DNA of 64,000 bases from Bacilli bacterium (lineage in GTDB: Bacteria > Bacillota_I > Bacilli_A > ML615J-28 > CAG-313). Position numbers and translations under genes: made by a program. How positions within the stretch are numbered: position 1 is the stretch's first letter; every line of letters starts with the position of its first letter. Location of the stretch: the NCBI GenBank assembly GCA_900752975.1, contig CAADXH010000018.1, positions 46,904 to 110,903 on the forward strand, written 5' to 3'. Below the pieces are notes generated by a model. It saw only the letters and a program-made list of their open reading frames with translations. It searched no databases and was not told the origin of the DNA. This document shows positions 9,341 through 39,105 of the stretch, in pieces.

Positions 9341-9360
9341 ATCAATATTATAATATATAG
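9341..9360 (-). promoter_or_regulatory. promoter-like element TATAATATTGA upstream of the topoisomerase A gene
   Basis: Member of the recurrent TATAATA(G/T)TGAA motif family, about 45 nt upstream of the start. Confidence 0.4.
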
Positions 9361-9374
9361 ATATATCAAAATTT

Positions 9375-9404
9375 CCTCTCTACAGGACTTAACCCGTAGA
9401 GAGG
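9375..9404 (-). terminator. hairpin terminator after 9425..9904
   Basis: cctctctac/gtagagagg stem. Confidence 0.5.
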
Positions 9405-9424
9405 AGAGGGATGATAAGAGATAA

Positions 9425-9904
9425 TTATTCAGTAACTTCTGCCTTCGGATAGTCTTCTTCAGATTCAGAAGCCATCATAGCCTTTTCAAGATCTGCATAT
9501 CCATTCTGTACAGACTTTCCCTTAACAATAGAGAAAGAATTTACATAAGTAATTTCACCGGTTTCAAAATCCTTATGGCAACGAATGCTCATAACATGTT
9601 TATCAGAGTTGAATTTACCTGCATAAGATTCCTGTACAGATACGGTGAATGTATTATCAGTATTAAACTTGATAATTGTACCAAACTGAGTAAAGCCCTT
9701 GAGCTGGTCATTGTCAAACAATTCTGCCTTACTCATACTAACTGGAATAGCTACCTTGTCGAAAGAAATAGAACACAACAGATTATACAACGAATCAAGA
9801 TTATTATTATAGAAATCAGAATCTGCGATTTCTACCTTAATCTTTGTAAATCTCGGTTTAGTCTTCTTAGTTTTATCACCTTTGTTGCTTCTGAAATTAG
9901 CCAT
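9425..9904 (-). CDS. hypothetical protein; possible ssDNA-binding protein (acidic C-terminal tail)
   Basis: Sits between the topoisomerase genes. It has a basic N-terminus and an acidic C-terminus ending ESEEDYPKAEVTE. No definitive motif. Confidence 0.5.
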   Translation of the reverse strand: MANFRSNKGDKTKKTKPRFTKIKVEIADSDFYNNNLDSLYNLLCSISFDKVAIPVSMSKAELFDNDQLKGFTQFGTIIKFNTDNTFTVSVQESYAGKFNSDKHVMSIRCHKDFETGEITYVNSFSIVKGKSVQNGYADLEKAMMASESEEDYPKAEVTE

Positions 9905-9985
9905 TTTAAATTTCTCCTTTATAAAAAATTTGTAATATGTAGATTTATTTTTACTAAATCTTTACATATTAGTTGCTGTGGTAGT

Positions 9986-10013
9986 AAAAAACAACGGGTA
10001 TATTTCAACCCGC
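9986..10013 (-). terminator. weak hairpin plus A-run downstream of the topoisomerase B gene
   Basis: cgggt/acccg stem followed by a T-run on the minus strand. Confidence 0.35.
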
Positions 10014-10039
10014 TGCCTATATTAGATATCGATTCCAAC

Positions 10040-12337
10040 TCAATCTTTTAACAAAAGATCTTTATTAGAATTGATATATCTCATTTCTTCTAGTTCCTTT
10101 TCAATATCTTCTACTGTATATCGAACCAGTGTTCTATCACCATTTGGATTCAAGGTTGATGATGCTAACATACTTGGATCCATTTCACCAAGACCTTTAA
10201 ATCGCTTCAATCTTGCTGGCTTGAATTTCTCAAATAGATTCATAAGATTGAATAACGATATTGTTTCACCATTAACAATATACTCTGCATCAGATCCATC
10301 GATATATGGAACTACTTTATTACACTCATTTATAAGAAAATTATTAAAGAATACCTTATGATATTTTTCATTTGCGATTCCATCGAATATAATTGTATCG
10401 TTTGTTCTCTCTATATTCAAGAATCTATATTTCTTAGATAAAGTTGATTTGAATTTAGCAAATGGTAACTTTCTATTGACTAAGATATCTTCTAGCAACT
10501 GAGGATCAATTGCATGATTGAAAGATACTTTCTTAAGTTCACTGATATAATCAGAATTGTTATATAACAATCTTGTTATTTCTGCTGGCTTAAGAGCAAT
10601 CTTCTTAGTTGTCTGGATGTTATATGATTTACTAAATTCCTTTTGAATATACTTGATAAAATCAAGCTTATCTGAAAAGTATCGATAGTCATTCTTTTCT
10701 GGAATTGCATATAGTGGTGGAAGTGCTGCGAATACTCTACCTGCTTCTACCAATGGAGCACAATATAACATAAGGAATCTTAACCATAATGTTCTAATGT
10801 GAGCACCATCAGGGTCTGCATCAGCCATGATAATAACCCTTTCTATCTTACACTTTTTAAGATTAAAGTTCTTACCATAACCAGCATCCATAATAGAAAG
10901 AACACCTGATAATTCATCATTCTTTAATACTTCTGCTTTTGACTTTTCGAACACATTCGGAATCTTACCTCTTGATGGTAGGATACCTTGATGTGCATGA
11001 TCTCTTACATTTCGAGCTGACCCGAATGCAGAATCACCCTCAACAATTATGAGTTCATTTCCGTGCCGACTATTTGGTTTCAAGTATTTTGCTGGAAGAC
11101 CAGAGAACGGCGACGCTTCGAACATCGAAGAAAGTTTAATTTTGTCTTTATCTTGTTTATTCCGCATTTCAATAACTTCTTTAAAGTACTTACAAAGTTT
11201 TTGAAGTTCTGTGGAATGAGATTTAGACCATTCATTTAAACCTGCAATAATTGTCTGAGAAACGAAAGGTTTCATATCATCATTATCAAGTAATTCTTTT
11301 GCTTGTCCATTGTATAATGCTTTAAGATGGAACGTACTAATTGCTAACTTAAGTCCTTGTCTAATATCAGCTGCTGAACAAGTTAACTTATTTTTAGCTT
11401 TAGAATTACTTAGAAAAATCTTATTCATGTAACTCTTAAAATACTTTGTAATACCATCAATTGCACCATCAACATGAGTACCACCATCTGTTGGACAAGT
11501 ATTATTTAGAGATATAATTTCTTCTTCACTTCCAGTATCATAAGTGAATGCAACTTCCATTTTTCTTGTACCATCATCATTTCGAATGATAATCGGTTCA
11601 ATAAATGGGTTCTGAGTCATATTAATAAGGTGTGTGATAATACCATCTCTGTTTTCAATCGACTCAACATGTTTCTTACCAGTAATATCAATACCAAGAT
11701 ATTCAACATGAGTTCCAATTGGAGTAGATGGAATGATAAGTGCTAACAAATCATAAATCTCTTTCCAAGTTGTAGTAACTTCACCAATTACAGTTTCATT
11801 TGGAATGAATGAAATTGTAGTTCCTTGTTTGTCACCACACTCAATATCAACTTCACCTTTTTTCCAAAGATGCCCTTCAATAAATTCTGCATGCTTTGCT
11901 TTTCCTAATACATAACTGTCTACAGTAAATTTACTTGAAAGAGCATTTGTTGTAGAACCGCCACAGCCATTCTTACCTGCTGAATACTTATATGGCTCTT
12001 TTACATAGTTTGATGAAGTATGACTTGTACCGAAAATGATACCAATCTTCCCATGTGGAATCCCTCTACCGTTATCACTAACAGTAACTTTATGATTTCT
12101 TTCATCATACTCTACAAAGATATTTGGTGAGAATGCATTTCCTTTTAAAATTTCATCTACAGAGTTTTGGAAGATTTCTCTTACCATTGTAATGAATGCT
12201 GCATTCTCTTTTACCTTACCAATAAACACATCTGGAGTTTGTCTTACTTGTTCTACAAAATCTGAGATTTGTCTAATCTCATTTCCGTAGTTCTTAGCTC
12301 TATCTTCTAATGAAGTTGTGTTTGATTTCTTCATTTT
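10040..12337 (-). CDS. type IIA DNA topoisomerase subunit B (GyrB/ParE-like); start moved to MKKSNTT
   Basis: GHKL ATPase region (VSDNGRGIP) and Toprim motif EGDSAFGSA. GGAGG lies 8 nt upstream of the ATG at 12337. The ORF-track start at 12424 has no RBS. Confidence 0.85.
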   Translation of the reverse strand, partial: KMKKSNTTSLEDRAKNYGNEIRQISDFVEQVRQTPDVFIGKVKENAAFITMVREIFQNSVDEILKGNAFSPNIFVEYDERNHKVTVSDNGRGIPHGKIGIIFGTSHTSSNYVKEPYKYSAGKNGCGGSTTNALSSKFTVDSYVLGKAKHAEFIEGHLWKKGEVDIECGDKQGTTISFIPNETVIGEVTTTWKEIYDLLALIIPSTPIGTHVEYLGIDITGKKHVESIENRDGIITHLINMTQNPFIEPIIIRNDDGTRKMEVAFTYDTGSEEEIISLNNTCPTDGGTHVDGAIDGITKYFKSYMNKIFLSNSKAKNKLTCSAADIRQGLKLAISTFHLKALYNGQAKELLDNDDMKPFVSQTIIAGLNEWSKSHSTELQKLCKYFKEVIEMRNKQDKDKIKLSSMFEASPFSGLPAKYLKPNSRHGNELIIVEGDSAFGSARNVRDHAHQGILPSRGKIPNVFEKSKAEVLKNDELSGVLSIMDAGYGKNFNLKKCKIERVIIMADADPDGAHIRTLWLRFLMLYCAPLVEAGRVFAALPPLYAIPEKNDYRYFSDKLDFIKYIQKEFSKSYNIQTTKKIALKPAEITRLLYNNSDYISELKKVSFNHAIDPQLLEDILVNRKLPFAKFKSTLSKKYRFLNIERTNDTIIFDGIANEKYHKVFFNNFLINECNKVVPYIDGSDAEYIVNGETISLFNLMNLFEKFKPARLKRFKGLGEMDPSMLASSTLNPNGDRTLVRYTVEDIEKELEEMRYINSNKDLLLKD

Positions 12338-12388
12338 AAACCTCCTATAAACAAAAAAGGATGATCTTTTACAATCACCCTTTTCTAA

Positions 12389-12418
12389 ATTTATGTACAC
12401 TCCACCTAATGGCAGAGT
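12389..12418. promoter_or_regulatory. perfect 9-bp inverted repeat (TGTACACTC-N12-GAGTGTACA) in the topoisomerase B leader
   Basis: Read directly. No adjacent T-run, so it is more likely an operator than a terminator. Confidence 0.4.
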
Positions 12419-12460
12419 GTACATAATATTTAGATTATTACTTTAATATGTGCTTACAGC

Positions 12461-13450
12461 TTATACCTTACTGTTTGCTGTAGTTGTTGTTCCCATACTT
12501 GGATTCTGAGTGCCAGACGGAGTTACTGGAACACCTGGCATTGGAACAGAATTCATATTTGGAACTGTCTGAGTTTGCTGCTGCATCATTTGAGGTTGTA
12601 CCTGAGGCTGGCCATTCTGAACAAATGCATTATTATTTAACATTGTTCCACCAGACTGCATTGGTGCACCCATCTGTTGCATTGGATTATTAAACTGCTG
12701 AGCAGTCTGCATAATCTGCTGCTGTGCTGTTTGCATTCCCATGTTTGCTGCCTGCTGCATCATCTGCTGCAACTGCTGTGGAGTCATCTGCATTTGCTGC
12801 TGAGGTTGCTGATAACCGAATCCAGGATTAGACGGAATATAATAATTTGGAACAGCTCCGATAGAACCATTATACATTCCGTTGCCCCAAGAACCTTGAT
12901 AGCCCTGGGCAGACATCATGTTACCAATCTGCTTGTTCAGAGTTTCATAGTTCTTCTGACCGTTTTCGTAAGCAATCGGTAAAAGCTTATTAACAATACC
13001 AAATGCCTTAAAGATTTCATCCATAATACCCTGGTCATCAGAAGTATTCGTAACCTTTACAGTCATTACGAAATTTCTCAAACCTTCCAAGTATTCGATG
13101 AGAACCTGAACTGGTTGCATAATCAGATTGAATTCCTGACCAGTCCACTTTACTCTCATTCTTTCTGTCTTCGGATCTACGATTTCCAATGCGAGATTAC
13201 CGTTGGAATCTCTCAAGTTCCACTTGAATTCTGCAAGTTCTTCATCAGATACAGACATAGAATTCTTAGTGGTCGAACGGATCATAGCCATTTCTTCTTC
13301 GTTAACGTTGCACTGCTTTGGCTTTTGAACATTGTTAAAGTTTAAGCCATTGTTTTGTGCAAAGTTATTTGGCATAGCCATCTGCTGTTGCTGGAATAAG
13401 TTTCCATTATTTCCCTGTGCTTGCTGATTTGCGAAAATGTTGTTAAACAT
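12461..13450 (-). CDS. Q/N/M-rich low-complexity (prion-like) protein with a central globular domain
   Basis: RBS GGAGGAAAATG. Roughly 60 aa at the N-terminus and 140 aa at the C-terminus are dominated by Q, N, M, P and G. The central ~110 aa have ordinary composition. Confidence 0.65.
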   Translation of the reverse strand: MFNNIFANQQAQGNNGNLFQQQQMAMPNNFAQNNGLNFNNVQKPKQCNVNEEEMAMIRSTTKNSMSVSDEELAEFKWNLRDSNGNLALEIVDPKTERMRVKWTGQEFNLIMQPVQVLIEYLEGLRNFVMTVKVTNTSDDQGIMDEIFKAFGIVNKLLPIAYENGQKNYETLNKQIGNMMSAQGYQGSWGNGMYNGSIGAVPNYYIPSNPGFGYQQPQQQMQMTPQQLQQMMQQAANMGMQTAQQQIMQTAQQFNNPMQQMGAPMQSGGTMLNNNAFVQNGQPQVQPQMMQQQTQTVPNMNSVPMPGVPVTPSGTQNPSMGTTTTANSKV

Positions 13451-13557
13451 AACATTTTCCTCCTTTTAAAATAATTTTATTTGATTGAGATTCCTCTCTA
13501 ATCACCTTAATATTATATAACCATTTACTTTTTTGTTCTAGACCTTGTAAATGATTA

Positions 13558-14623: not shown

Positions 14624-15118
14624 TTAGTCCTCCTTTAAGAATGTTCCACCGAAATTTCCATTACCAACTGCATCAGAATTCTCGGCTCTGAATTCCTCTT
14701 CATTATTGAATCCTTCGAGATACTGTTCAAGCGTATCATCATCGAAAGCTTCATTCGGATAAGCTTTGTTGCAGAGTTTTAAAAATCTGTAAAGAGAAAT
14801 ACCCTTTCCAGCATCTACTCCCTCTACCATTACAATCGATTCTCTTACATCGACTGCACGTTCTGCATCTTCATCGAGATACGATTTAATTGATACGAAA
14901 GCATGATATCTACCATAAACGATAAATGCTTCGCCACTAATTGTCATCTCATTATCAGCAAGCTGACTTCTGAGATCAATCAAATAGGATTTGAAGATAA
15001 TAAAATATTTCTTCTCCTCCGGTGATTTTGCGTCGGGTGGAACTACACCCGTCTTGTTGATTTGTTTGATCTGTTCTTGTGTAACATGACCATTCAATTC
15101 TGTGAATAAACTTCCCAT
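14624..15118 (-). CDS. hypothetical protein (164 aa)
   Basis: RBS GGAGG. Tightly packed against the downstream gene. Confidence 0.55.
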   Translation of the reverse strand: MGSLFTELNGHVTQEQIKQINKTGVVPPDAKSPEEKKYFIIFKSYLIDLRSQLADNEMTISGEAFIVYGRYHAFVSIKSYLDEDAERAVDVRESIVMVEGVDAGKGISLYRFLKLCNKAYPNEAFDDDTLEQYLEGFNNEEEFRAENSDAVGNGNFGGTFLKED

Positions 15119-15184
15119 TTTAAAATTCCTCCATTTTAAAAATTTTGTTTGATATATCTCTATATCTACCTTAATAATATATAC

Positions 15185-16399
15185 TTACCAAAATTTTTTA
15201 GGTCGTCTTTTTACATAGATACAATGATTACGGAATCTTGTGATACCAACGTAATGAAGATTGTTGTTTATATTTCTATTGAGAAACTCTTCAAAGTAGA
15301 TACCATTATTGAATTCAGAACCTTGACTCATATGTGTTGTAATAGCATACCCAAATTCAAACTTATTTCCTTTAGAAAAGTGAGTTTCTAGTAATGCTTT
15401 TCTCTCTTTTCTATCTGCTGTAAGATATCTATAATCAACATCAATATCCTTGAAATAAGAATCTACAATATCCGGTTTGAATGACATTTTGAATGTGTTG
15501 TCTTCATGGTTATAACTTGCTGGACTAATCATAGATACACAGTTTCCTACGAGTCCATTTGTTAAACTAATTCCACCACATTCTTCTTGCCAATTATTCT
15601 TTCTACAAACAACTCTTTCACCAAGATTTGGAATAGAATTAATGAATCCGAACATATTATGACGAACATGATTATTTATATTATCTCTAGTAGCGTTCTT
15701 TCCACAGATTACAATATCTGATTGAGCAATCATATTGTCTGTTACCTCATCGTCATAAATAACTGTAACATTTCTAAATTTGCCATGAGGTAATGGTCGT
15801 CCATTAATGAGTAACTGTGAGAATTTGATAATTGTATTATCACTAGCTTGTCTCATAATTTCAGTTAGTTTATGAACTCTTTCTGGATTATTTAAATACC
15901 CAGGTTTACCAACTACAGGTGGTAACTGGTCAATATCACCAGCAGCAATTACAGGTATATTCATACTATCAATAATTAACCGCATATCAGCTGGAACCAT
16001 ACCTGCTTCATCTACAATGATTAAGTCAATATTATCAAGATGTGTTTTAGGAATGAATACCATCTTAAATTTCGGTTTATTAAAGACAGGATCTAGTTCT
16101 TGTTCACCTTTGTCATTTAATACAGGCATTTCTATAAAGTCATATAACCAAGAAAAAATAGTACCTGCATTTTGCATTCCTTTTGTACGCATATTGATTG
16201 TTGCTGACCCTGTATAAGCCATAGGTGCAACACGCTCAATATCAATATGCAATGCTTCCAATATCTTATTGATAAGGAATGTTTTTCCGGAACCTGGTGG
16301 TCCAGAAATTTCAAAAGTTTGTTCAGTACCCTGACGCCACCATCTGATGGCGTCATTGAATACTTTTGTCTGTGATTGATTTAATTCAACAGGAATCAT
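15185..16399 (-). CDS. SF1 DNA helicase, Dda/RecD-like
   Basis: Walker A GPPGSGKT, Walker B DEAGMV, and the RecD/Dda-type motif ITTHMSQGSEF. Confidence 0.8.
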   Translation of the reverse strand: MIPVELNQSQTKVFNDAIRWWRQGTEQTFEISGPPGSGKTFLINKILEALHIDIERVAPMAYTGSATINMRTKGMQNAGTIFSWLYDFIEMPVLNDKGEQELDPVFNKPKFKMVFIPKTHLDNIDLIIVDEAGMVPADMRLIIDSMNIPVIAAGDIDQLPPVVGKPGYLNNPERVHKLTEIMRQASDNTIIKFSQLLINGRPLPHGKFRNVTVIYDDEVTDNMIAQSDIVICGKNATRDNINNHVRHNMFGFINSIPNLGERVVCRKNNWQEECGGISLTNGLVGNCVSMISPASYNHEDNTFKMSFKPDIVDSYFKDIDVDYRYLTADRKERKALLETHFSKGNKFEFGYAITTHMSQGSEFNNGIYFEEFLNRNINNNLHYVGITRFRNHCIYVKRRPKKFW

Positions 16400-16917
16400 T
16401 TCTTTTTATCTCCTTTTAAAGTTTGCTGAGTTAATCGATCAATATTAACTTGATTGTCAATTAAAGCCAGTGTATTATAATCACTGATACTGTTATTCTC
16501 CATAATATTGATTAAATCAATCCAACAAACTGTTTCGTTTGTAAAAGGGTGAGAGGTAATATCTCCTCTGTTTGTTCTACAAGTAGCATATAACATATTC
16601 GGATTGTTAAGATACTTGGAAATGAAGAACGCAGAGATACTAAAGTTACTATCTTCTTTCATTCTGATAATAGCATATCTATTGAACAAATAGTAAGCAA
16701 TCTTTCTATTGCTGAAAGGCTCATAGTTAATAGAATACTTATCAGGGAATTCGAACAGAATCTTAGGATAATTGATGGACTTACCATCAATATGCACAGG
16801 CATTCCATTCTCTACAAAGATGCCATTATTGATATTGATTTCCAATACCAATAGTAAGTTGTACTCGATTTCATCCATTGCCTTTTTCACGTCTGATACA
16901 TTGTAACCGATTTCCAT
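16396..16917 (-). CDS. hypothetical protein (173 aa); its stop overlaps the helicase start (ATGA)
   Basis: RBS AAGGAG. The 4-nt overlap suggests translational coupling. Confidence 0.55.
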   Translation of the reverse strand: MEIGYNVSDVKKAMDEIEYNLLLVLEININNGIFVENGMPVHIDGKSINYPKILFEFPDKYSINYEPFSNRKIAYYLFNRYAIIRMKEDSNFSISAFFISKYLNNPNMLYATCRTNRGDITSHPFTNETVCWIDLINIMENNSISDYNTLALIDNQVNIDRLTQQTLKGDKKK

Positions 16918-16959: not shown

Positions 16960-16988
16960 CTCTTAACACTTTTATAATATATAAATCG
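16960..16988 (-). promoter_or_regulatory. promoter-like element TATAAAAGTGTTAAGAG, overlapping the hairpin ttaagag/ctcttaa
   Basis: Motif-family member about 35 nt upstream of the gene start at 16917. Confidence 0.4.
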
Positions 16989-17353: not shown

Positions 17354-17781
17354 GTACGAAAACAAATACTTCATTCACACTAGATCAATTTGCTGATAGT
17401 AAATCATCAAATGATATATCGTATTATTCTATGAGTCTATTAGAGAAAGACCCAAGTACAAATATTGAATATGACGTATTTAATGTTATATCTGATTATA
17501 TGAATGAACTCAAACAGATGTCCCATCCTGTAACATTATCAGAAACGGAATATTATACTTATCGATTTAAGCCAAAACTTCTCGCAAAATATCTATATGG
17601 TAATACAGAGCTATACTTTATCATCTTATGGATAAATGATATGTGGTCAGTAAAAGATTTTAATCTTCGAACGATAAAACTGATTAAGAATACAGAACTT
17701 TCTGAAGCATTGAGTAAAATAAACGCCTCAGAAAAGTCCTTTATTAAAGCTTATAATGAAGCTGCATTAGCCAACTTTTGA
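17350..17781 (+). CDS. hypothetical protein (143 aa), ATGA-overlapped with the preceding gene
   Basis: GGGAGG RBS. Confidence 0.5.
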   Translation: MSTKTNTSFTLDQFADSKSSNDISYYSMSLLEKDPSTNIEYDVFNVISDYMNELKQMSHPVTLSETEYYTYRFKPKLLAKYLYGNTELYFIILWINDMWSVKDFNLRTIKLIKNTELSEALSKINASEKSFIKAYNEAALANF

Positions 17782-19935
17782 TTGAGAGATAACTTTCTTA
17801 AGATACTTCAGATATGCATCTCTATCAACATCTGGAACTCTAATAAACAATCCGTTTGAAGAACAATCATCTTCGGGCACATAGGTTTTAGTCGGTTTTA
17901 CAAACTTATCTGTATCTGGAATTTCTCCATTCTTCATCATCATAAAATGAGAATACAACATTCCAAAATCAGCTTCTGTAAACTTATCCATCTCACTTCT
18001 ACCATATTTGATATTATAATCATGTGCTAATCGTTCTTCTTTACTTCCTGTTGGGTTATAGATTCTAGTATATTCGTCTGAATATCTAGAAATACCATTT
18101 AACGAATTGATTGACGGACTCATAATATTACCCATCTCCTCTTTTTTAACTACTCTTAATACGTCTTCTGGACATGAACCATCAAGATTTGGAATTCCAT
18201 TCTTGAGTTTTGATCCATCTCTCCAATATACATTATAGAACGGTTTTGTACCATCGCTATTTAAAACAATGGGGTTCTGAACTTTCGGAACCTCAGTGTT
18301 TTCTTCCAAAATTGTCGGCTTACGATTATCATTGTTTGGAATTTCTACAGATTCATCAACTTCACATCCTTCTACATTCTTACAACTCAAGTCTAGTTCA
18401 TATAACGGTTTCTTCAATCCGACGTCACACATTAAACTAATACTATCGATATTCTCATAAGGATGATAAATTCCGGTACAATAATCCAATGGTTTTGTAT
18501 ACGGTTCAAATCTATGCTTTACCAACTTAATAGACAGATACTTTTCTTTCAATCTCTTGATATAAGAAGGCGTAATAATAAATGCACCATCCAAGTTATT
18601 CAGAATCAACATAGACTCACCAAGATTACTTCTGTCAATACAGTTTGCTAGATTAAGGGCACCTTTTTCTCTTGCTTCATCAACTTTCTTATTAGCTTCA
18701 CGATTCAATTGTCCTGCTGTAATTACTGGAATATCCATTTCTGCAGAAATCGTCTTCATCTCATTAATGATAGCACCAAGTCTTAATCTTTCTTCAGAAG
18801 CACTAAAACGGTCGATTGACTTGATTACATTGATATAGTCTACAATATAACAGATTACTTCATAATTACTTTCTGCTAATGTATCAGCGAAATCATATAA
18901 GTAACCTGTATCAATCGTATTACTCGGTTCATATTTGATAATAACATCGATAGGGTCTTTATCGTTTACAACCAATCCATTCTGTCTCATCAATTCAACT
19001 ACTTTATCACTATTTCCAATTTCAGACATTCTCTGACCAGTTACCATAGAACAAAGACGAGTAAAAGTTTCTCTCTTTGTATTTTCAAGTGTAAGATATA
19101 CAATCGCTGGTTTCTTAGTAGGGTCTTTGGTTTTATAGTTTTTATTATACTTCTTTAACTGCAACGCTAAATTCAAAAGAGTTAATGATTTACCTTCACC
19201 CTGTAATCCAAAGAAGCCATATACTCTTGCATTTTCAAATCCACCACCAAGTAGATAGTTTAAACCTACCATACCTGTAGATAACTTACTAGAAGTGTTC
19301 GAAACATATGTGTATGTGTCTTTCGCATAATCTTCAAAAATACCAGGTCTAAGAGATACAAATTCCTGTTCTGGATTTATAACTTTATTATTTCTGATAT
19401 GATTATTACAATCAGCAATCATACCTTTCCAATTATTAACGATTGCTGTTTTTTCATATGCAGACGCACTATCAAAATCTCTGCTGATTTCTGCAAATCT
19501 ATGGATATAAGAAGAGAATGTTGCACTATCAAGTAAACTTGTTACCATTGTATTTACATATTCTACATCTTGGTTCGACATTTCTTGAAGATTGATATTA
19601 TAATGTCCTGCATGTGTTACATCTCTAGAAACAATATAATCCATGACTTTCTTGGCGTCATACAAACCATATTTTAATCTTGCATCTAGTGCAAATCGAA
19701 TAAAATCAATTCTTTCAATATCAGCATCACTTTTATAGTCATTTGGGTTAATGATACTGAAAAGTTCTTTGATTGTTTTATATCCCTTAGTCTTGATATT
19801 TTTGTTTTCTGATACTAGATAAGAACAAATCAAATCTAGAATTACATAACTTAATTTTTGTGTAAGTTCTCTTACTGGTTCTGAAGATTTACTTCTTCTT
19901 GAGTTTTCATATCTTTGAGAAATTTTTACTGCCAT
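17767..19935 (-). CDS. DnaB-like replicative helicase with a ~260-aa C-terminal extension
   Basis: GLNYLLGGG...GLQGEGKS Walker A, a DnaB-type AGQLNREANKK motif, and RBS AGGAGG. Confidence 0.65.
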   Translation of the reverse strand: MAVKISQRYENSRRSKSSEPVRELTQKLSYVILDLICSYLVSENKNIKTKGYKTIKELFSIINPNDYKSDADIERIDFIRFALDARLKYGLYDAKKVMDYIVSRDVTHAGHYNINLQEMSNQDVEYVNTMVTSLLDSATFSSYIHRFAEISRDFDSASAYEKTAIVNNWKGMIADCNNHIRNNKVINPEQEFVSLRPGIFEDYAKDTYTYVSNTSSKLSTGMVGLNYLLGGGFENARVYGFFGLQGEGKSLTLLNLALQLKKYNKNYKTKDPTKKPAIVYLTLENTKRETFTRLCSMVTGQRMSEIGNSDKVVELMRQNGLVVNDKDPIDVIIKYEPSNTIDTGYLYDFADTLAESNYEVICYIVDYINVIKSIDRFSASEERLRLGAIINEMKTISAEMDIPVITAGQLNREANKKVDEAREKGALNLANCIDRSNLGESMLILNNLDGAFIITPSYIKRLKEKYLSIKLVKHRFEPYTKPLDYCTGIYHPYENIDSISLMCDVGLKKPLYELDLSCKNVEGCEVDESVEIPNNDNRKPTILEENTEVPKVQNPIVLNSDGTKPFYNVYWRDGSKLKNGIPNLDGSCPEDVLRVVKKEEMGNIMSPSINSLNGISRYSDEYTRIYNPTGSKEERLAHDYNIKYGRSEMDKFTEADFGMLYSHFMMMKNGEIPDTDKFVKPTKTYVPEDDCSSNGLFIRVPDVDRDAYLKYLKKVISQSKVG

Positions 19936-20095: not shown

Positions 20096-20644
20096 TCACT
20101 TAAAGACTTTTTGAATATATACATGTCTATACATGGATTCAAGAACACGCTTGGTAGTTTTAACCATAACAAAACGTTTGGTAGTTTTATCCATAACAGA
20201 ATAACTCTCAAAATCAACCAATGCTCTTGCGTCAACATATCCTTCTTTCAGCAATCTAGTGATCTGAGTATAGAAAATGTCATGTTGACTTTTTTCTAAG
20301 ACAAAGAATATAGGAACATCGCTTGTTGTCAATTCATTATACTCCAGTAGTTTTTCGATTATTTTAACGCATTTTTGAATATTACAAACATCAAAATTAC
20401 GAACAATAATGCAAGTTTTAACCGTTCCTTTACAAGCCCAAACAATATCTCCATGGGTTATAGAAAGACTACGAATGAATTCTTTGCTATTTATTGTAGT
20501 ATCAATAAGATCAAGCTCAAACATGAATTTTCTATCTTTCTTATCTTGTTCGGACAAGAAGAATTTGCAATTCAAAATTCCTTCATTAACAAACTTTACT
20601 TCAATGAGAGTTCCATTAAAAATACTGTTAAATACATCTTTCAT
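20096..20644 (-). CDS. hypothetical protein, paralog B of the tandem pair (start moved to MKDVF)
   Basis: Its RBS context aatcGGAGGtatattATG is identical to paralog A. The ORF-track N-terminus MGIFLAE... is translated leader. Confidence 0.6.
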   Translation of the reverse strand: MKDVFNSIFNGTLIEVKFVNEGILNCKFFLSEQDKKDRKFMFELDLIDTTINSKEFIRSLSITHGDIVWACKGTVKTCIIVRNFDVCNIQKCVKIIEKLLEYNELTTSDVPIFFVLEKSQHDIFYTQITRLLKEGYVDARALVDFESYSVMDKTTKRFVMVKTTKRVLESMYRHVYIQKVFK

Positions 20645-20673
20645 AATATACCTCCGATTACTTTGAGTTCTTT

Positions 20674-21201
20674 TCAGTTTCTTGCTTCTGCCAAAAAGAT
20701 TCCCGTACTCTGCCAAAAAGATTCCCATACTTCGTATTTAGTTTTTAACATGGATTTATATATCTCATTTTTAGCCTTAAGCAGAACTTTATTATTTTCT
20801 AGCTGAACCAAGGTGTTCGCTTCAAGATACCCATTCATGAGTAACAAAATATCCCATTCAAATGACAAGTTAAGCAACCCAGTGTCGAATATGAAGAATA
20901 TTGGGACATCATCCATATTCTCATCTTTCACATATTGTTCAAGACTTTTAACACTCCCTACAATATCATTATTATCCCAGTCAAAAACAACTATGCAATT
21001 GTCAACAATACCCTTACAAACTTCATATACTTCTCCACGAATTATAGCGAGCTTCTGGATAAATTCTTCATCATCTTTTGTGATGTCGATAACCTCAAAT
21101 TTGACAAATCTGTATCCTTCATCAAATTCTTCTGGTGTTGGTTCGATAACGTAATCAAGAATTCCATCACATAAAGCTTTCTCTGTTTTTACATTTTTCA
21201 T
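20674..21201 (-). CDS. hypothetical protein, paralog A of the tandem pair
   Basis: Clear similarity to B (CKG(I/T)V..C(I/V)V, DVPIFF(I/V)). RBS GGAGG. Confidence 0.6.
   Translation of the reverse strand: MKNVKTEKALCDGILDYVIEPTPEEFDEGYRFVKFEVIDITKDDEEFIQKLAIIRGEVYEVCKGIVDNCIVVFDWDNNDIVGSVKSLEQYVKDENMDDVPIFFIFDTGLLNLSFEWDILLLMNGYLEANTLVQLENNKVLLKAKNEIYKSMLKTKYEVWESFWQSTGIFLAEARN
20688..20726 (-). repeat. tandem direct repeat: 2 x 17 nt (CTGCCAAAAAGATTCCC) with 22-nt periodicity
   Basis: Read directly. It lies in the last ~17 codons of paralog A, which also form the 5' leader of paralog B. The two copies are read in different frames (WESFWQ and GIFLAE). Confidence 0.7.
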
Positions 21202-21273
21202 AATATACCTCCGATTATAGGACGAGTTCTTTATAACAGATTTCTGTATCCTATTATCACTATTATAATATAT
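21202..21273 (-). promoter_or_regulatory. conserved ~70-bp promoter and 5' leader cassette, copy 2 (reverse complement of 497..569)
   Basis: About 90% identical to copy 1 over ~70 nt, including the TATAATAGTGATA box and the RBS. Confidence 0.6.
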
Positions 21274-21278
21274 AAATA

Positions 21279-22400: not shown

Positions 22401-22475
22401 TCAATTCACCCTCCGATTTATAATAATTTTATAGGAAAGTTTTTTAGTAAATTAAAAAAAACATAGTTATATATC

Positions 22476-22492
22476 ATTATAGTGAATAGCAG
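22476..22492 (+). promoter_or_regulatory. promoter-like element ATTATAGTGAATAGCAG
   Basis: Motif-family member about 65 nt upstream of the start at 22555. Confidence 0.4.
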
Positions 22493-22554: not shown

Positions 22555-23790
22555 ATGAATACAACAGCAAACAGAAACACAGCAACCACACGGGAAATCA
22601 CTACTATCTTCGACAAAGCTATTAGCTTTGATAAGGTAGAGCCTTGCATTCTCTACTTAGCCGAAAGTGTAAACGGCAAGCAGGGAATTTTCTTGAAGCT
22701 GGAACATTCCAATGGAAACATTTTCGGAGCAATCAGAAAAGTTAATCCCAAAAGAAAAGTGAAGGCTGGAAGCAACAAGATTATCTTTAAGTATTATGGG
22801 CAAACTTATAGCTTGTTCTTAAATGAAGTAATGCTTATTGATGGCCGCACATCAAGACTGTTTAAAATGTACAATTTTCGTCTTCATTTCGAAGATGCTG
22901 ACAGGATTTATGACGGTTTGTGCAAGCATTTCAAAGCGTTAAATGCAGCCAATCAAGTAAAAGAACAGGAAGAGAAACCACAGACGAATCAGACTGTAGC
23001 ACCAATTGATAAGGAATTGTTTGACAATTTGATGGGTATGGCTATTAGTCAGACAGGTTTGACAGAAGCTGAAGTTACTGAGTATGTTGACTATGTTACT
23101 CGGTATATTCAGAATAAGAGAGAAGAGATGAACGATCTTAAAGAACAGATTCAGGAAATTTCCGAAGATATCTCTTCCAAATCTTCAGAGTTTGTTTTGG
23201 AAATTCAGAAGCGGAAAGAAATAGCTGAAAAGAGAAGAGCAGAAGAAGCTCGTAAAGCTGCTGAGGAAAAAGCAAAGAAGAAGCAGGAAGAAATTAACTC
23301 TGTAAGAGAATTTCTCTCTGGAGCTTCAGATGATATGATTCAGTATCTGAAAGCACAGCTTGGTGTTGAAGAAACTAAAAAATCTGATGAAGAATCTGAT
23401 TCACTGAAAGGTGATATCAATATGAAGGTTAGAGTTGTTCCTTCTAATAATGATGACTCTTGGAATTTCTTTGCAAAACACGTTAGAGAAATTTGTGATC
23501 GTTCATCGTTACCAAATAAAGAAATTCTTGAAAGACTCGTGAAGAAATCTGACGGCATGACCCTTAAAGAAATTGCCGATGCGATGGGGTTTAACTCCAG
23601 CGGAAGAATCGTAAGAATAAATGATCTTCTCAGAAAAATGAAATTTGACAAGATCTTAGGAACCAGAGTTCGTAAATCTGGTTATAAGATAGCCACTAAT
23701 AAAGAAAGTCGTGCCAATGGTGGCGTAACAAGAAAAATTAATTGTGAAATTTATAATGAATTGGCATCTGAATCTGAATATATCAAATAA
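22555..23790 (+). CDS. coiled-coil protein with a C-terminal winged-helix DNA-binding domain (start moved to MNTTAN)
   Basis: GGAGG lies 9 nt upstream of the ATG at 22555. There is a charged helical stretch EKRRAEEARKAAEEKAKKK, and a C-terminal region LKEIADAMGF...VRKSGYKIA that looks like a wHTH. Confidence 0.55.
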   Translation: MNTTANRNTATTREITTIFDKAISFDKVEPCILYLAESVNGKQGIFLKLEHSNGNIFGAIRKVNPKRKVKAGSNKIIFKYYGQTYSLFLNEVMLIDGRTSRLFKMYNFRLHFEDADRIYDGLCKHFKALNAANQVKEQEEKPQTNQTVAPIDKELFDNLMGMAISQTGLTEAEVTEYVDYVTRYIQNKREEMNDLKEQIQEISEDISSKSSEFVLEIQKRKEIAEKRRAEEARKAAEEKAKKKQEEINSVREFLSGASDDMIQYLKAQLGVEETKKSDEESDSLKGDINMKVRVVPSNNDDSWNFFAKHVREICDRSSLPNKEILERLVKKSDGMTLKEIADAMGFNSSGRIVRINDLLRKMKFDKILGTRVRKSGYKIATNKESRANGGVTRKINCEIYNELASESEYIK

Positions 23791-24723: not shown

Positions 24724-24726
24724 TTA

Positions 24727-24766
24727 AGATGGGTTGGATTTAGTTCCAACCCATTTTGTTTTTTCT
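24727..24766 (+). terminator. rho-independent terminator
   Basis: aagatgggttgg/ccaacccatttt stem followed by TTTTTT. Confidence 0.7.
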
Positions 24767-24780
24767 GAATATTTGAATTA

Positions 24781-24817
24781 TATAATATAATAGTGAATAG
24801 TAGTTGAATACTATTTT
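24781..24817 (+). promoter_or_regulatory. promoter-like element TATAATATAATAGTGAATAGTAGTTGAATACTATTTT
   Basis: It contains a TATAAT box, the TAGTGAATAG motif and the palindrome ATAGTA-N6-TACTAT, about 45 nt upstream of 24861. Confidence 0.45.
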
Positions 24818-25226: not shown

Positions 25227-25337
25227 TAGTTTTCCTTTAAAACCGATAAAAGAATACTGTCCGTCGTTAGATGGGCAGTTTCTTTTTTGTCGTATAGCTC
25301 GAACTTTATTATAAATGACTATAAAGGAGGAATCGTT

Positions 25338-26273
25338 ATGGCTAAAAATTATAACAATACTTTTATCTATACGAAATTTCCGTATGAAGAGAATATTTTT
25401 AGATTCTTAGTAAATGCAAATCGTATTGATAAAGATACTGATAAGTTTGAGGATATTAAGTATGAGTTTAAGAAGAGACAGATTGACAGTTGTCTTCTTA
25501 AGGTTTTGATGTCTAAGAACGTAATTCTGTGTGTATCTGATACTACACCGTTGAATACACAGTTCAGGGTTATTTGTGCAAGAGACCCTAAGTTTAAATC
25601 TAATACAGATTATAAGATTTTCATTGATTGTACCGGACTTATTATAATGGATAAGGACGGTAGTTATAAATGTAGAAGTATTGATATTCTTGTTTCTCAT
25701 ATTGTGAATGCTATGACTACAATGATTTACCATAAAGCTGAGAATCAAATCCTTTCTACACAATTGGTCAGTGATACAATGGAAGCTTTCTGTAATCTAT
25801 TTACGCATATAATTGACTATCTTGCAAAGATTTCTGTAATTCCTTCTTCTAAATCCAAGTGTCAATTCTTATCTTGTATGTACTTTACAGAGAACATCAT
25901 TCAGAAGGAATTTAATAATAACTATCAGCATATTGCCGGTAGAATTACAAATCTTTCTGAAAGAGAACAGGAAATGATTATGGCTCAGTGTGATGAAAAG
26001 GATTTTGAATCGATTAAATCTTTTGTAGAAAAACTTGCTGACTTAATTAAAGTTCCTGCATTGAAAGTAGATAATGTGATTGATAAATGGATGTACTTAT
26101 ACGGTTCTAATACTGTATTTGCAATTGAATATTATCCGGCATTGTCTGCTATGTTGACAGATGCATACTGTGGTGCATATATCAACAACCAAAAAACAAT
26201 TGAAAAGGTGGTAGGTAATACTTTAGTAAGTTATACAAAGAATGTTATTGCTAAAGGTGGGACGTTAGTATGA
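25338..26273 (+). CDS. hypothetical protein (start moved to MAKNYNN)
   Basis: AAAGGAGG lies 7 nt upstream of the ATG at 25338. Confidence 0.55.
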   Translation: MAKNYNNTFIYTKFPYEENIFRFLVNANRIDKDTDKFEDIKYEFKKRQIDSCLLKVLMSKNVILCVSDTTPLNTQFRVICARDPKFKSNTDYKIFIDCTGLIIMDKDGSYKCRSIDILVSHIVNAMTTMIYHKAENQILSTQLVSDTMEAFCNLFTHIIDYLAKISVIPSSKSKCQFLSCMYFTENIIQKEFNNNYQHIAGRITNLSEREQEMIMAQCDEKDFESIKSFVEKLADLIKVPALKVDNVIDKWMYLYGSNTVFAIEYYPALSAMLTDAYCGAYINNQKTIEKVVGNTLVSYTKNVIAKGGTLV

Positions 26274-30861: not shown

Positions 30862-32661
30862 ATGCAAATGTTATATTGTGGTCTTACTGATTTTAGTACA
30901 GTTGTAAGAAATGACCCTCAGATTACGATATATGGCGATGAATCCAATTCTACTATAAGAAAAAACTTCATAGAAAATCTTGCTAAATGTTTAAACTCAT
31001 TATCAATAATTGAATTAAAAGAAATAACTGTTATTGAAGATTATGCATTATCCAATCTTCAAGTAAGCAAGTTTAAATTGATTCTTCCTGATACATTAAT
31101 AACAATTGGCAAGTATGCTTTTCAGAATTGTACAGCGATGAACGATATTGTAATTCCTGCTTCTGTAACTGAAATTGGTGAAGGTGCTTTTTATGGATGC
31201 AATTCTCTTAATAATATTTATTTTAAAGAAGATACTAAGATCACTTATATTCCAGAATTGTTCTGTTCTGGTGGTGGACTTAACACAGTTGGTATCGAAT
31301 ATAAAAACGGAACAAGAACTGTTCATGATACAATAGAATTTCCAAAATCAATTACTAAAATTAATAACAATGCTTTTTATAATTGTGGTTCTATGGGTCA
31401 TACTTGTATTATTGGAGATAATATAACAACAATTGGCGACTATGCCTTTTACGGTACTACGATTGATGTATTTAAAATAGGTACTGGTATTAACACAGGT
31501 TCTGACCAAAAGACAGAAGATTTTAATGATGGTAATTATGATACAGATAGAGATATTAAAACTCCATATGTTTTATACCTATCTTCTAAACGTCAGTTCA
31601 GATATAAACATTTTGTCGCTGCAGAAGATATGGATGCTGGTACAATCTATTTACTAAATAAGAAAGAATATGAAGTACCGAATGAAAAGACATATGTATA
31701 TAAAACCGATGATGATGATTTTAAATTCTGTTTAAAGAATTCTCATTTGCTAATCTTTAAGAATGGTCTCCTCTTACCAAAATCATATTATTATCTCCAT
31801 TCTATTATCAATACTCCTATTACAGACGTTGGTGTTGTATTTAACGTATCAATTAAAACAGGAGATATTATTGATATCTTCTATGTTACTAACGACTTAT
31901 TCCATATAGATACAGAGTATTATGATGAGAAAACAAAAGAGCGTTATATCACAAATGGTGATATAGAATTGAGTAAGAATGAAGATGAATATAGAGTAAT
32001 GGGTAATGAACTTTATGAAAATAGTAATACACGAACAAACTATATTAAAATGCATTCTCCTTTATATGGTATTTCTAGTAAGCATTCAGTCTTTGTATTC
32101 TTAAACGGTAAGAAGATTAGATTAGATGAATTAGAAGATATATCTGATACGATTATGAGCATTAAAACAGATTACTCTGTATATAATCCAGAAATCAATG
32201 CAGGAATACTAGAAGTATTAAACCATCTAGATACACAAGATATCATTGAACAAGTGTATATTAATGATGGTTTACATCCTGATAATAATGAATCAGCAAA
32301 AAATCAATTTACTAGTACAACCAATCAGAATATCTTTAGAAATACAAGATTAGTAAGATCAATAGATTTAACAAAGTTAGAGTCATATGCTGAACGTACT
32401 TTGTTAGATAAAATATTAAATGATTTATCTGATGAGAATCTCAATAAATTATTCTATAATTATGACACAGCGAAAGGTCCAATGACTATGTATCGAAAAG
32501 CCAGTATTAATGAGCCAGATTTTATTAATAGAAATTCTGTAATCACGAGTATTGTAGATAAATACTATACAACAAACGGTACATCTTATATTGATGATAA
32601 AGCAGCACTATTTTCTACAGAATCTACAGATAAAGAAGTTATTGAAACAGATACAGAATAA
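30862..32661 (+). CDS. BspA-type leucine-rich-repeat protein, a candidate receptor-binding or adhesin protein
   Basis: Repeats such as IPASVTEIGEGAFYGCNSL, ITKINNNAFYNCGSM and IGDYAFYGT. RBS AGGAGG. Confidence 0.6.
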   Translation: MQMLYCGLTDFSTVVRNDPQITIYGDESNSTIRKNFIENLAKCLNSLSIIELKEITVIEDYALSNLQVSKFKLILPDTLITIGKYAFQNCTAMNDIVIPASVTEIGEGAFYGCNSLNNIYFKEDTKITYIPELFCSGGGLNTVGIEYKNGTRTVHDTIEFPKSITKINNNAFYNCGSMGHTCIIGDNITTIGDYAFYGTTIDVFKIGTGINTGSDQKTEDFNDGNYDTDRDIKTPYVLYLSSKRQFRYKHFVAAEDMDAGTIYLLNKKEYEVPNEKTYVYKTDDDDFKFCLKNSHLLIFKNGLLLPKSYYYLHSIINTPITDVGVVFNVSIKTGDIIDIFYVTNDLFHIDTEYYDEKTKERYITNGDIELSKNEDEYRVMGNELYENSNTRTNYIKMHSPLYGISSKHSVFVFLNGKKIRLDELEDISDTIMSIKTDYSVYNPEINAGILEVLNHLDTQDIIEQVYINDGLHPDNNESAKNQFTSTTNQNIFRNTRLVRSIDLTKLESYAERTLLDKILNDLSDENLNKLFYNYDTAKGPMTMYRKASINEPDFINRNSVITSIVDKYYTTNGTSYIDDKAALFSTESTDKEVIETDTE

Positions 32662-35564: not shown

Positions 35565-35578
35565 AATTCATAACTCCT

Positions 35579-36301: not shown

Positions 36302-36342
36302 TTATAAATATTCTCCTTTTATTCGTTATATAATAACAATCA

Positions 36343-36720: not shown

Positions 36721-36742
36721 CTGACCTTTTCTTTTTATAAAA

Positions 36743-36778
36743 AGTCCTAGAGATTGTGTTTTGAAATTCTCTAGGACT
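36743..36778 (-). terminator. strong hairpin (11-bp perfect stem agtcctagaga/tctctaggact) downstream of the HNH gene
   Basis: Read directly. Confidence 0.55.
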
Positions 36779-36781
36779 CTC

Positions 36782-37495
36782 TTAATAATATAATTCTTTA
36801 ATTACATATTTATCTTCTTGAAATACAAACATCTGATTTTTGAACCAGAATCTCCAGCCGCCGCCAGTTGTTGCTTGTACGCCTCTAAGACAATCTGAAA
36901 TATGTCTAGATTCTAATCCATGGTTAGCCGCAAACATAGTTTGATTATTTGTAAGGTAAATTTCACCAGTAGGCGACACTGCGTAAAATTCTTTAACCAT
37001 TCTCGAATTTCTAGTCTGTCTTGTTGGAGTGGTCCATCTAAGATTTCCTCTAACATATCCGACATTATTATTGATTCTATCCAAAGATACTCTTTCTCCA
37101 GCATAATGATTTTTAGCATATAAGTATTTTCCATACTCATCATCATAGAAATCTACAAATGCATCGTAATCTGTGGTCAATCCTCTGCCTCCATAATTAT
37201 AATAGTATTCACTATTAGGATTATAAATACGATTTTTCATATGTACCCATACATCATAAAATTTAGGATCTTGTTGTTTTAATCCAAATCCACAAGCAAC
37301 CTCATGTAGTGAACAATTTTGTCTATCCCTAAGATTGCCTTCGTAAATATCTTTTTCTCTTCCACATTTTAAGCATCTGCAGGTTAACATTCTTCTATTG
37401 TTAACAACATCTCTTTTTGAAGAGATAACCTCCATGTCATTAATAACATCTCCTGGTTTAATTTCTTTGAACTTTCTAGACATAATTAAAACCAC
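36782..37495 (-). CDS. HNH homing endonuclease with an N-terminal zinc-finger-like region
   Basis: HNH_3-type motif SLDRINNNVGYVRGNLRWTTP and a Cys cluster CRCLKCG...C..H..C. Confidence 0.7.
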   Translation of the reverse strand: MVLIMSRKFKEIKPGDVINDMEVISSKRDVVNNRRMLTCRCLKCGREKDIYEGNLRDRQNCSLHEVACGFGLKQQDPKFYDVWVHMKNRIYNPNSEYYYNYGGRGLTTDYDAFVDFYDDEYGKYLYAKNHYAGERVSLDRINNNVGYVRGNLRWTTPTRQTRNSRMVKEFYAVSPTGEIYLTNNQTMFAANHGLESRHISDCLRGVQATTGGGWRFWFKNQMFVFQEDKYVIKELYY

Positions 37496-37612
37496 CTTTC
37501 ATAAATATAAATAAATAGCTATTTATTAAGCAAAATTATTTATATTTATGTTAGTATGTTTTAAAAAATAATTATGAAAAGGCTGTGATGAGATAACTTG
37601 TCATTAAATTCA

Positions 37613-38827
37613 TTAATCTCCGAATGCTTCCATAGCGTTCATTTGTGTAAACTTCTCTGTACTATCGTGGAAAGCCTTCATCATAATATTCTTTACAGAA
37701 CTAGCTAATTGAGGAGTAGCAGTACCAATATTAGGAGTATTTAGTAGGTAATACAAGTCGCCAGCACACTTGTTGCAGATGCATTCGTTTTTACATAAAC
37801 TACTAAAACGCATCTTTACAGTCTTCCCCTTGTATTTATCCATATTTGTACTGTCTAGACGCACTAGTCTACTTCCTTCTACTATATAAGAATACATTAG
37901 AAGTTTTAGATAGTTTTTATCTAAAGTTACTGTAATTGTATGTTTTGTACCACAGTCGCTACCCTTTGGTCCTAACTTAATATGCTGAAATGCCAATAAG
38001 AATTTCTTTTCCTCATAACCCCATATAGAAGTTTTTCTAGAACGGGAATATGGACCAGCTGCTAGAGAGTTTGCCATTGCAGCATAATCATCTTTTGATA
38101 CACCTTCAGAATAACAAGACTTAATAATGTTGTATCCCTTGGTAGGGTCAGGGTCTTTTTGTGCACCTTTTACGACATACATATTTTTAAAGTTGTTACC
38201 TAAGTCTGCACCTGCACCAGCTTTAATATTATCCCATGCAGGGTCATCTTTTAATTTATCTTCACAATAGGCTAATAGTTCATTCTCTATCTTCTGCATA
38301 GTAAATGCATCACCAGCAGCCAATTCCTTTTCATATTTCTTAAACAATTCTTTCTTCTTTGGTTCAATGACTTTGGAGATTAATAACATATCCTCTGAAG
38401 AAGTAGTGCAAATTACAGTAGAATAATTCATGAATTTTTGACAACAGAGAATCCAGTCTTTAAATTGCTGTGTTGTTACTCTATCTTCCAGAATGGCTAG
38501 AGATAGTTTATCATTAATATCACCGTATACACCTTTACTAATTGGTTTATTAATATAACCAATTTCATCAAAGAGTCCTGGATAATCGATGCAAGCTTTA
38601 TTAAAGAACCAAGAACCAACTGTAGTAACAAATTCATTCTTATTATTATGATAGGTCTTTGGTGGCACTTTTATAACATCATAAGTGTTAAACTTTTTCT
38701 TTCCATTAAATTCCCCGAAACATTCCATGAATACGCTTGTTTTCAAACAATCTTTGCTAGATAATGATAGAATATAATCTCTTTCACTATCTGTAATATA
38801 TCTAGATTTTCTCTTTTTAATAGCCAT
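37613..38827 (-). CDS. hypothetical protein (404 aa) with a C-terminal Cys-rich segment
   Basis: RBS AAGGAGG. Confidence 0.5.
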   Translation of the reverse strand: MAIKKRKSRYITDSERDYILSLSSKDCLKTSVFMECFGEFNGKKKFNTYDVIKVPPKTYHNNKNEFVTTVGSWFFNKACIDYPGLFDEIGYINKPISKGVYGDINDKLSLAILEDRVTTQQFKDWILCCQKFMNYSTVICTTSSEDMLLISKVIEPKKKELFKKYEKELAAGDAFTMQKIENELLAYCEDKLKDDPAWDNIKAGAGADLGNNFKNMYVVKGAQKDPDPTKGYNIIKSCYSEGVSKDDYAAMANSLAAGPYSRSRKTSIWGYEEKKFLLAFQHIKLGPKGSDCGTKHTITVTLDKNYLKLLMYSYIVEGSRLVRLDSTNMDKYKGKTVKMRFSSLCKNECICNKCAGDLYYLLNTPNIGTATPQLASSVKNIMMKAFHDSTEKFTQMNAMEAFGD

Positions 38828-39032
38828 ATTGATTCCTCCTTACTCGCTTTCTTTCAATAGAAGGCAATGCTTTATATTCTTTATGGGTAATACCATTTAG
38901 GTCAGTATAATGATAATACTCACCTTCATCAACAATACATTTGAATATTTTGCTTCTTTCTTGTTCTTCTAATTTCCTGCCTTCAAGAATCTTTGTTTTC
39001 TTTTGTTCAATTGTTGACATTGGCTTAAACAT
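38817..39032 (-). CDS. small hypothetical protein (71 aa)
   Basis: RBS AGGAG. Confidence 0.4.
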   Translation of the reverse strand: MFKPMSTIEQKKTKILEGRKLEEQERSKIFKCIVDEGEYYHYTDLNGITHKEYKALPSIERKRVRRNQYGY

Positions 39033-39086
39033 ATTGTATTCTCCTTTCCGAATTTATATGATTGTTGAAATGGGTTATAATTACAT

Positions 39087-39105
39087 ATTATAATATTGAA
39101 GAGGA
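39087..39105 (+). promoter_or_regulatory. promoter-like element TATTATAATATTGAAGAGG
   Basis: Motif-family member about 45 nt upstream of the ATG at 39147. It heads the operon that carries the RNAP gene. Confidence 0.45.

Follow-up and report, generated by a model that had tools for sequence, protein, structure and literature searches.

The 64-kb stretch of DNA considered here (the window: positions 46,904 to 110,903 of contig CAADXH010000018.1, assembly GCA_900752975.1, deposited as a Bacilli bacterium) is part of an uncultivated jumbo phage of ~215 kb related to AR9 and PBS1, and it carries a recurrent promoter motif, designated class A, at ten intergenic sites. These sites are probably (about 80%) the early promoters of an AR9/PBS1-like phage, read by a virion RNA polymerase (RNAP) that is injected with the DNA and starting at a G. 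The evidence, all of it observed directly, is the motif with its statistics and orientation, the way it is retained in relatives, a register identical to that of the annotated AR9 early promoters, and the layout of the genes behind it. A second motif, class B, resembles the AR9 late promoter and is the only one of the two upstream of the virion RNAP gene.

A recurrent AT-rich motif upstream of window genes

The initial annotation, made from the sequence alone, had described an extended TATAAT element at seven sites, with two looser copies. All nine are present where they were reported (seven of seven and two of two), and every one is oriented toward the next gene. The consensus in its literal form (TATAATAKTGAWTAG, with ≤2 mismatches) gives 6 matches where 3.84 ± 1.95 are expected, a number reached by 18 of 100 shuffles, because it is mis-centred and the conserved block lies further 5'. 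When the sites are aligned on their common GTGA, the conservation extends in that direction and the (A/T)TAG tail is variable; the tail is not promoter but the variable 5' arm of a hairpin, as described below. After re-centring, the conserved unit is TTATATATTAT-N6-G, and the position 6 nt after the core is a G at nine of the ten sites and an A at the other. The 3' end of the motif is 46 to 69 nt from the start codon at the ten intergenic sites, giving predicted leaders (start to start codon) of 48 to 71 nt, and the motif often lies just past a terminator.

De novo motif discovery used a ZOOPS-type expectation-maximization (EM) search of 32 upstream regions taken from a rough gene model. A first run returned the Shine-Dalgarno sequence only; in the class A run this part of each region was trimmed and the stronger second motif (class B) was masked. 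EM then converged on TTATATATTATAATAGTGAT with a log-likelihood of 90.0, compared with 65.3 ± 3.1 (maximum, 72.1) in 20 dinucleotide shuffles, so that the comparison with shuffled sequence, which the initial annotation had named as its refutation, comes out in favor of the motif. At a threshold of ≥13 bits, the EM matrix has 11 matches on both strands of the 64 kb (1.7 ± 1.2 in 100 shuffles, with a maximum of 5), of which 10 are intergenic, and all ten are co-oriented with the next gene. The initial annotation did not list the site at 60227-60246 on the minus strand or one just past the window end. The latter is the one further site given by an out-of-sample scan of 12 kb outside the window, in the same genome, and it is correctly placed 52 nt before gene 63734-63964. 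The doubtful match at 48069..48088 is conserved in two relatives (L013 and L014), which may reflect coding constraint alone.

Correspondence with AR9 early promoters

The AR9 early promoters have the consensus AAATATATATTAT-(6N)-G+1, derived from 41 starts mapped by differential RNA sequencing (dRNA-seq) and primer extension (PMC5312081, Lavysh et al. 2017). Chloramphenicol does not suppress early transcription in AR9; no newly made protein is needed, and the activity is assigned to the injected multisubunit virion RNAP (PMC5312081). A highly conserved, AT-rich early motif of ~10 nt, centred near -10, is reported from bioinformatic searches in front of the early operons of every RNAP-encoding jumbo phage, a group that includes phiR1-37, Staphylococcus jumbo phages, phiKZ, and 201phi2-1 (review, PMC7598289). 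A pattern taken from this literature, TATATATTAT-N6-G with ≤1 mismatch, has 18 matches in the window (8.8 ± 2.6 in shuffles, none of 100 reaching 18) and recovers all 10 class A sites, 4 of them exactly. The full 13-mer AR9 consensus is at background with ≤3 mismatches (65 matches versus 62) and marginal with ≤2 (12 versus 6.5).

The converse comparison gives the same register. When applied to 50 kb of AR9, the window-derived matrix has six matches, all six of which are annotated early promoters, with the G of the matrix falling on AR9 +1. The eighth annotated AR9 early promoter in those 50 kb, upstream of AR9 g270, reads as the reverse complement of the consensus. The matrix also matches annotated promoters of phiR1-37 and sites in Staphylococcus phage PALS_2, both of the ATATATTAT-N6-G form. 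Class A and the AR9 early promoters thus have in common the core ATATATTAT (centred near -11), the 6-nt spacer, the G at the start, the lack of a -35 element, and a location before the gene for the N-terminal part of the non-virion RNAP beta' subunit (g270 in AR9; the site starting at 39098 in the window). They differ in that the 5' AAA of the AR9 consensus is not kept, being TT or variable in the window, and in that leaders are longer in the window phage, whose host is probably an anaerobe. The early motifs of phiKZ and 201phi2-1 have additional conserved regions at -20 and -30, neither of which is seen in the window. As judged by sequence, class A is the known AR9-type early promoter in another phage and not a promoter of a new kind, and the proposal in the initial annotation of a phage-specific promoter class without a -35 element is supported.

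A separate observation concerns phiR1-37, in which an annotated promoter (L049:19796-19820) shares 19 consecutive bases, ATATTATAATATTGAAGAG, with window positions 39087-39105. It precedes g274, the phiR1-37 gene for the non-virion RNAP beta' N-terminal part, and the orthologous proteins are only ~29% identical.

Conservation in relatives

Class A motifs are kept before orthologs in relatives whose marker proteins are 83%, 81%, and 36 to 37% identical to those of the window phage, and the flanking intergenic sequence has changed. In the relative with an 83% identical helicase, the motif is kept even where the downstream protein is 43% or 26% identical. Seven lineages, spanning 36 to 100% protein identity, retain the copy upstream of the non-virion RNAP operon, within intergenic DNA that has otherwise diverged. 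Among individual sites, the copy before gyrA is kept in L026 and L029, the one at 13501..13520 in L029, where the downstream protein is 43% identical, and the L029 ortholog of 16965..16984 retains both the motif and its hairpin, with a compensatory change.

Other readings of the class A sites

The closest competitor, though an improbable one, is that these are -10-only promoters read by host sigma-A RNAP, alone or redirected by a phage factor. In most copies, a TATAAT or TATTAT is plausibly spaced with respect to the predicted start, and the host is a low-GC, GGAGG-using bacterium in which sigma-A promoters are AT-rich. Class A shares with sigma-70/sigma-A promoters this AT-rich element near -10, but its conserved block is longer (~11 nt plus a G at fixed distance, beyond a hexamer). 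As the initial annotation had stated, a -35 box is missing: at 16 to 18 bp, the closest match to TTGACA averages 3.4 of 6 positions, compared with 3.16 at random positions, and no class A site has a TG extension. The only good -35-like hexamer (TTGAAA, 5 of 6), before 39098, belongs to a class B site on the opposite strand, and its spacing is not kept in L013 and L015. Sigma-70-like sites are also not enriched between 9000 and 25500 (90 versus 85.5 ± 9.4), and no sigma or gp55-like protein matches among the ~50 window proteins scanned, which represent 64 of ~215 kb. In AR9, promoters with this element are active even when no new proteins are made, and the virion enzyme is credited with reading them.

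The register bears on this as well. The initial annotation expected transcripts to start 7 to 10 nt downstream of its motif, but the AR9 register places the start at the G inside that motif (TATAATA[G/T]T-G-A), with the core TATATATTAT spanning -16 to -7. A sigma-type -10 reading of the TATAAT is unsupported: with the start at this internal G, the TATAAT would lie at -9 to -4, too close for a -10 element. T4 late promoters, which go with a gp55/gp33 system, are likewise AT-rich near -10 without a -35, but their TATAAATA differs from the window motif. Of the two readers that the initial annotation offered, host RNAP with a phage factor has nothing in its favor, and the phage multisubunit RNAP is the best-supported candidate, given the match to the AR9 early motif in sequence and register and the RNAP homologs encoded in the window.

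It is less probable still that the product of gene 22555-23790, for which a winged helix-turn-helix (wHTH) fold had been proposed, is a specificity factor or activator for class A. The C-terminal ~70 residues have, by eye, a helix-helix-helix-strand-strand order that also appears in a low-confidence model, and a winged helix is possible. However, the protein has no sequence match in Pfam, PHROG, or PDB, and the single-sequence AlphaFold model is unusable (predicted local distance difference test [pLDDT] score of 47) and too poor for a structure search. The protein is poorly conserved, at 69 to 93% identity in close relatives and with no copy recovered from remoter ones, whereas conservation of the motif extends to AR9. 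The gene is itself behind a class A promoter, with a predicted start at 22484, so the first class A transcripts must arise without its product; AR9 early transcription, likewise, proceeds without new proteins. The factor proposal is therefore unsupported, and the protein may have a later regulatory role, such as shutting off early promoters. Equally remote is the possibility that the motif arose by chance in AT-rich intergenic sequence or serves as an operator or some other protein-binding site, which would fit the lack of enrichment of the literal consensus and of the 13-mer at ≤3 mismatches but not the enrichment of the re-centred motif by three independent measures, its strict co-orientation with genes, its frequent position past terminators, its conservation in relatives, or its coincidence with experimentally mapped AR9 promoters.

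RNA polymerase genes and a second promoter class

Homologs of both the virion and the non-virion split beta/beta' RNAPs of AR9 are encoded in the window, with one subunit per set. The strongest motif found by EM is class B, CAAC[T/A]-N6-TAAA, with a log-likelihood of 95.7 compared with 56.0 ± 2.6 in shuffles. At ≥10 bits, class B (AAC[T/A]-N6-TA) has 34 matches where 14.2 ± 3.7 are expected; 28 are intergenic, and 27 are co-oriented and within 80 nt of a start. It occurs in 22 of 35 upstream regions, 16 to 39 nt from the start codon and often right past a terminator.

AR9 late transcription has 94 starts with the consensus AACA-(6N)-T-A/G (PMC5312081). The non-virion RNAP with gp226 reads this promoter, A(-11)ACA-(6N)-T A/G(+1), on the template strand (PMC7598289, PMC9209446). 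Class B resembles this promoter in sequence and is late-like, sharing the AAC-N-(6N)-TA geometry and the location before virion genes, the virion RNAP gene, and a tRNA gene; it differs at position -8, which is mostly T in the window phage (T, 64%; A, 35%) and A in AR9. The AR9 enzyme requires uracil in the DNA. The suggestion that class B generally sits in hairpin loops was dropped, as most sites that have class B alone show no flanking inverted repeat when the intergenic regions are inspected by eye.

The two classes are distributed differently over the genes (Table 1). Class A precedes the non-virion RNAP operon, gyrA, the helicase operon, and several genes of unknown function, whereas only class B precedes the virion RNAP gene, structural-region genes, and the tRNA gene. 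Both a class A site (start 39098) and a class B site (39608-39625) lie upstream of the non-virion gene at 39645..41234, and class B alone (39053-39070) lies upstream of the virion gene at 37613..38827. This is the arrangement expected if an injected enzyme makes the second enzyme, and the second enzyme then makes virions. For gyrA and 12461-13450, the upstream region that holds the class A site contains a strict class B site as well, a combination like that of the continuously expressed genes of AR9.

The gene at 25338-26273, behind a class B site, codes for a protein with a weak Pfam match to the phiKZ gp28 vertex protein. An HNH homing-endonuclease gene (36782-37435, minus strand) adjoins the virion RNAP beta gene and is present in some near-identical contigs and absent from others, such as L001 and L005.

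Stem-loops and a shared leader at predicted 5' ends

Most predicted class A transcripts begin with a stem-loop. Within +1 to +30, 8 of 10 fold into a hairpin of ≤-3 kcal/mol in which pairing begins at nucleotide 1 or 2; the same holds for 8% of shuffles and for 13.5% of random genomic segments that start with G (binomial P of ~1e-7 to 4e-6). The mean z-score is -2.2. In the remaining two, stems of longer range form close to the 5' end, beginning at nucleotide 1 (60229) and at approximately nucleotide 5 (513). The stems differ between promoters, and orthologs keep the hairpin in other sequences (GAAGAG/CTCTTT, GAAGTTAGT/ACTAATCTT, GGAGA/TCTCT, and GATATA/TATATC). An AAC-N6-TA element of class B type overlaps the loop and the 3' arm of the hairpins at 9343, 16967, and 39098. 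Hairpins of this type are less common in AR9 (~2 of 7 sites) and phiR1-37 (2 of 9), but in PALS_2 a hairpin starts at nucleotide 1 to 3 in 4 of 5 sites; they are unmentioned in those papers on AR9, phiR1-37, and phiKZ that were searched. A tentative idea, which we consider somewhat less probable than its opposite, is that the early promoter of this clade is a cassette with an obligatory stem-loop at +1/+2, with compensatory changes between orthologs and the late-promoter AAC in several of the loops. Such stem-loops could shield the earliest phage mRNAs, at their 5' ends, from the 5'-dependent RNases of a Gram-positive host; a role as a structural element for the virion or non-virion RNAP is less likely than this.

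Two class A promoters are followed by near-identical 57-nt leaders (513-569 and 21202-21258), and the genes behind these promoter-leader pairs have no detectable similarity to each other. The same leader cassette is found before at least five further genes in relatives (L003, L005, L008-L010, L022, L023, and L029), with an inner hairpin that varies (ACAG/CTGT, ACG/CGT, or ACTGT/ACAGT). RNAalifold recovers an invariant outer stem only, with no covariation, so any structure of the leader is tentative. Behind the second copy are two tandem paralogs (20096-20644 and 20674-21201, both minus strand; 32% identity), and the short spacer between them (20645-20673) carries another copy of the leader's 3' end. 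A second diverged paralog pair consists of 5387-6157 (plus strand) and 47862-48605 (minus strand), at 27% identity.

Genome context

The window has a GC content of 30% with strong GGAGG ribosome-binding sites, and intergenic DNA makes up 6% of it. A megablast search with 20 kb of the window against a reference phage collection gave no match, so no close phage was found there at the DNA level. Metagenome assemblies (many of them) contain near-identical and 75 to 88% identical contigs of 212 to 219 kb, as well as further relatives at 36 to 37% identity; searches with single, poorly conserved early proteins returned near-identical contigs only. An Rfam scan of the window identified tRNA only.

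Among the remaining genes, one codes for an anaerobic ribonucleotide-reductase activase (62387-62902, minus strand), which suggests an anaerobic host. The protein of 23908-24723 (plus strand) has a PemK/MazF-like toxin domain, 30862-32661 (plus strand) codes for a BspA-type leucine-rich-repeat protein, and a Cpn60-like chaperonin gene (L046:5340-7058) lies just beyond the window.

Table 1. Promoter sites, predicted leader elements, and selected genes of the window (window coordinates)
Feature	Positions	Strand	Predicted start	Details
Class A	496..515	+	G 513	ATATATATTATAATAGTGAT; 57 nt before 570-989; 21.6 bits; exact TATATATTAT-N6-G
Class A	9341..9360	-	G 9343	48 nt before gyrA; past terminator 9405-9374
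Class A	13501..13520	-	G 13503	Before 12461-13450; 20.6 bits; a looser copy in the initial annotation
Class A	15165..15184	-	A 15167	Before 14624-15118; 15.3 bits; weakest intergenic site; kept in L026
Class A	16965..16984	-	G 16967	Before 16396-16917 and SF1 helicase gene 15185-16399
Class A	21256..21275	-	G 21258	Before 20674-21201; 23.6 bits
Class A	22467..22486	+	G 22484	Before 22555-23790 (proposed wHTH protein); 19.5 bits
Class A	24778..24797	+	G 24795	Before 24861-25226; past terminator 24725-24758
Class A	39081..39100	+	G 39098	Before 39147-39599 and the non-virion RNAP beta' N-terminal gene
Class A	60227..60246	-	G 60229	Before 58472-60178; 17.0 bits; also found with the AR9-derived pattern
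Class A-like, doubtful	48069..48088	-		Within coding region; A at start position; no 5' hairpin; 16.4 bits
Stem-loop	9320-9343	-		
Stem-loop	16947-16967	-		
Stem-loop	24795-24816	+		
Stem-loop	39098-39121	+		
57-nt early leader cassette	513..569	+		TAGGATAC-hairpin-GTTATAAAG...TCCTAT-GGAGG; near-identical copy at 21202-21258 (-)
Class B	6336..6353	-		Directly before tRNA-Gln
Class B	25298..25315	+		CTCGAACTTTATTATAAA; before 25338-26273 and a 1524-aa gene; 16.9 bits
Class B	39053..39070	-		TTTCAACAATCATATAAA (AACA-N6-TA); before 38817-39032 and the virion RNAP gene; 12.9 bits
Class B	54504..54521	-		Before 1356-aa gene 50414-54484; 14.7 bits
Class B	56461-56478	-		
Class B	62333-62350	-		
Virion RNAP beta, C-terminal part	37613..38827	-		AR9 g264 homolog; phrog_2962; 33.6% identity over 98% of the protein
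Non-virion RNAP beta', N-terminal part	39645..41234	+		AR9 g270 homolog; phrog_2987; ~29% by tblastn; AR9 annotation
tRNA-Gln	6252-6327	-		Sole tRNA in the window
GyrA	6920-9295	-		
GyrB	10040-12424	-		
SF1 helicase	15185-16399	-		
DnaB-like helicase	17767-19935	-		
Virion structural protein	42681-47453	-		
Endolysin	48725-50395	-		

Discussion

In the proposed mechanism, the functional unit of class A would be the AT-rich core (T)TATATATTAT at approximately -16 to -7, followed by a 6-nt spacer and a purine start. Its reader would be a split beta/beta' RNAP of the phage, carried in the particle and delivered along with the DNA, acting without sigma or a -35 contact. The first transcripts made upon infection would be those of the replication genes and of the genes for the non-virion RNAP. 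This second enzyme would then use class B promoters (AAC[T/A]-N6-TA) to transcribe the genes for virion proteins, the virion RNAP, and the tRNA. For class A, where transcription starts, when it occurs, and which enzyme is responsible are all assigned here by homology.

Several points weigh against this interpretation. The assignment to a virion RNAP relies on the analogy with AR9, whose RNAP subunits are only ~29 to 34% identical to those of the window phage, and even for AR9 the reading of early promoters in vitro by the virion enzyme without helpers is still to be demonstrated (PMC5312081). A single subunit of each RNAP set is encoded in the window. The early timing is deduced from few genes, as most genes downstream of class A sites have no known function. 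With a perfect TATAAT or TATTAT in many of the copies, some host sigma-A activity is also conceivable.

If the interpretation is correct, the AR9-type programme of two polymerases and two promoter classes extends to a widespread uncultivated clade of ~215-kb phages represented in ENA, JGI, and Logan metagenome assemblies, with a promoter core that is nearly unchanged despite polymerase subunits that are only ~30% identical. The two motifs would provide a rule for sorting the genes of phages in this clade as early, late, or both. The class A sites would also offer a set of divergent natural promoters for work on how RNAPs of this virion type find their sites, and the 5' stem-loops and shared leader are leads on how the stability or translation of early mRNAs may be controlled.

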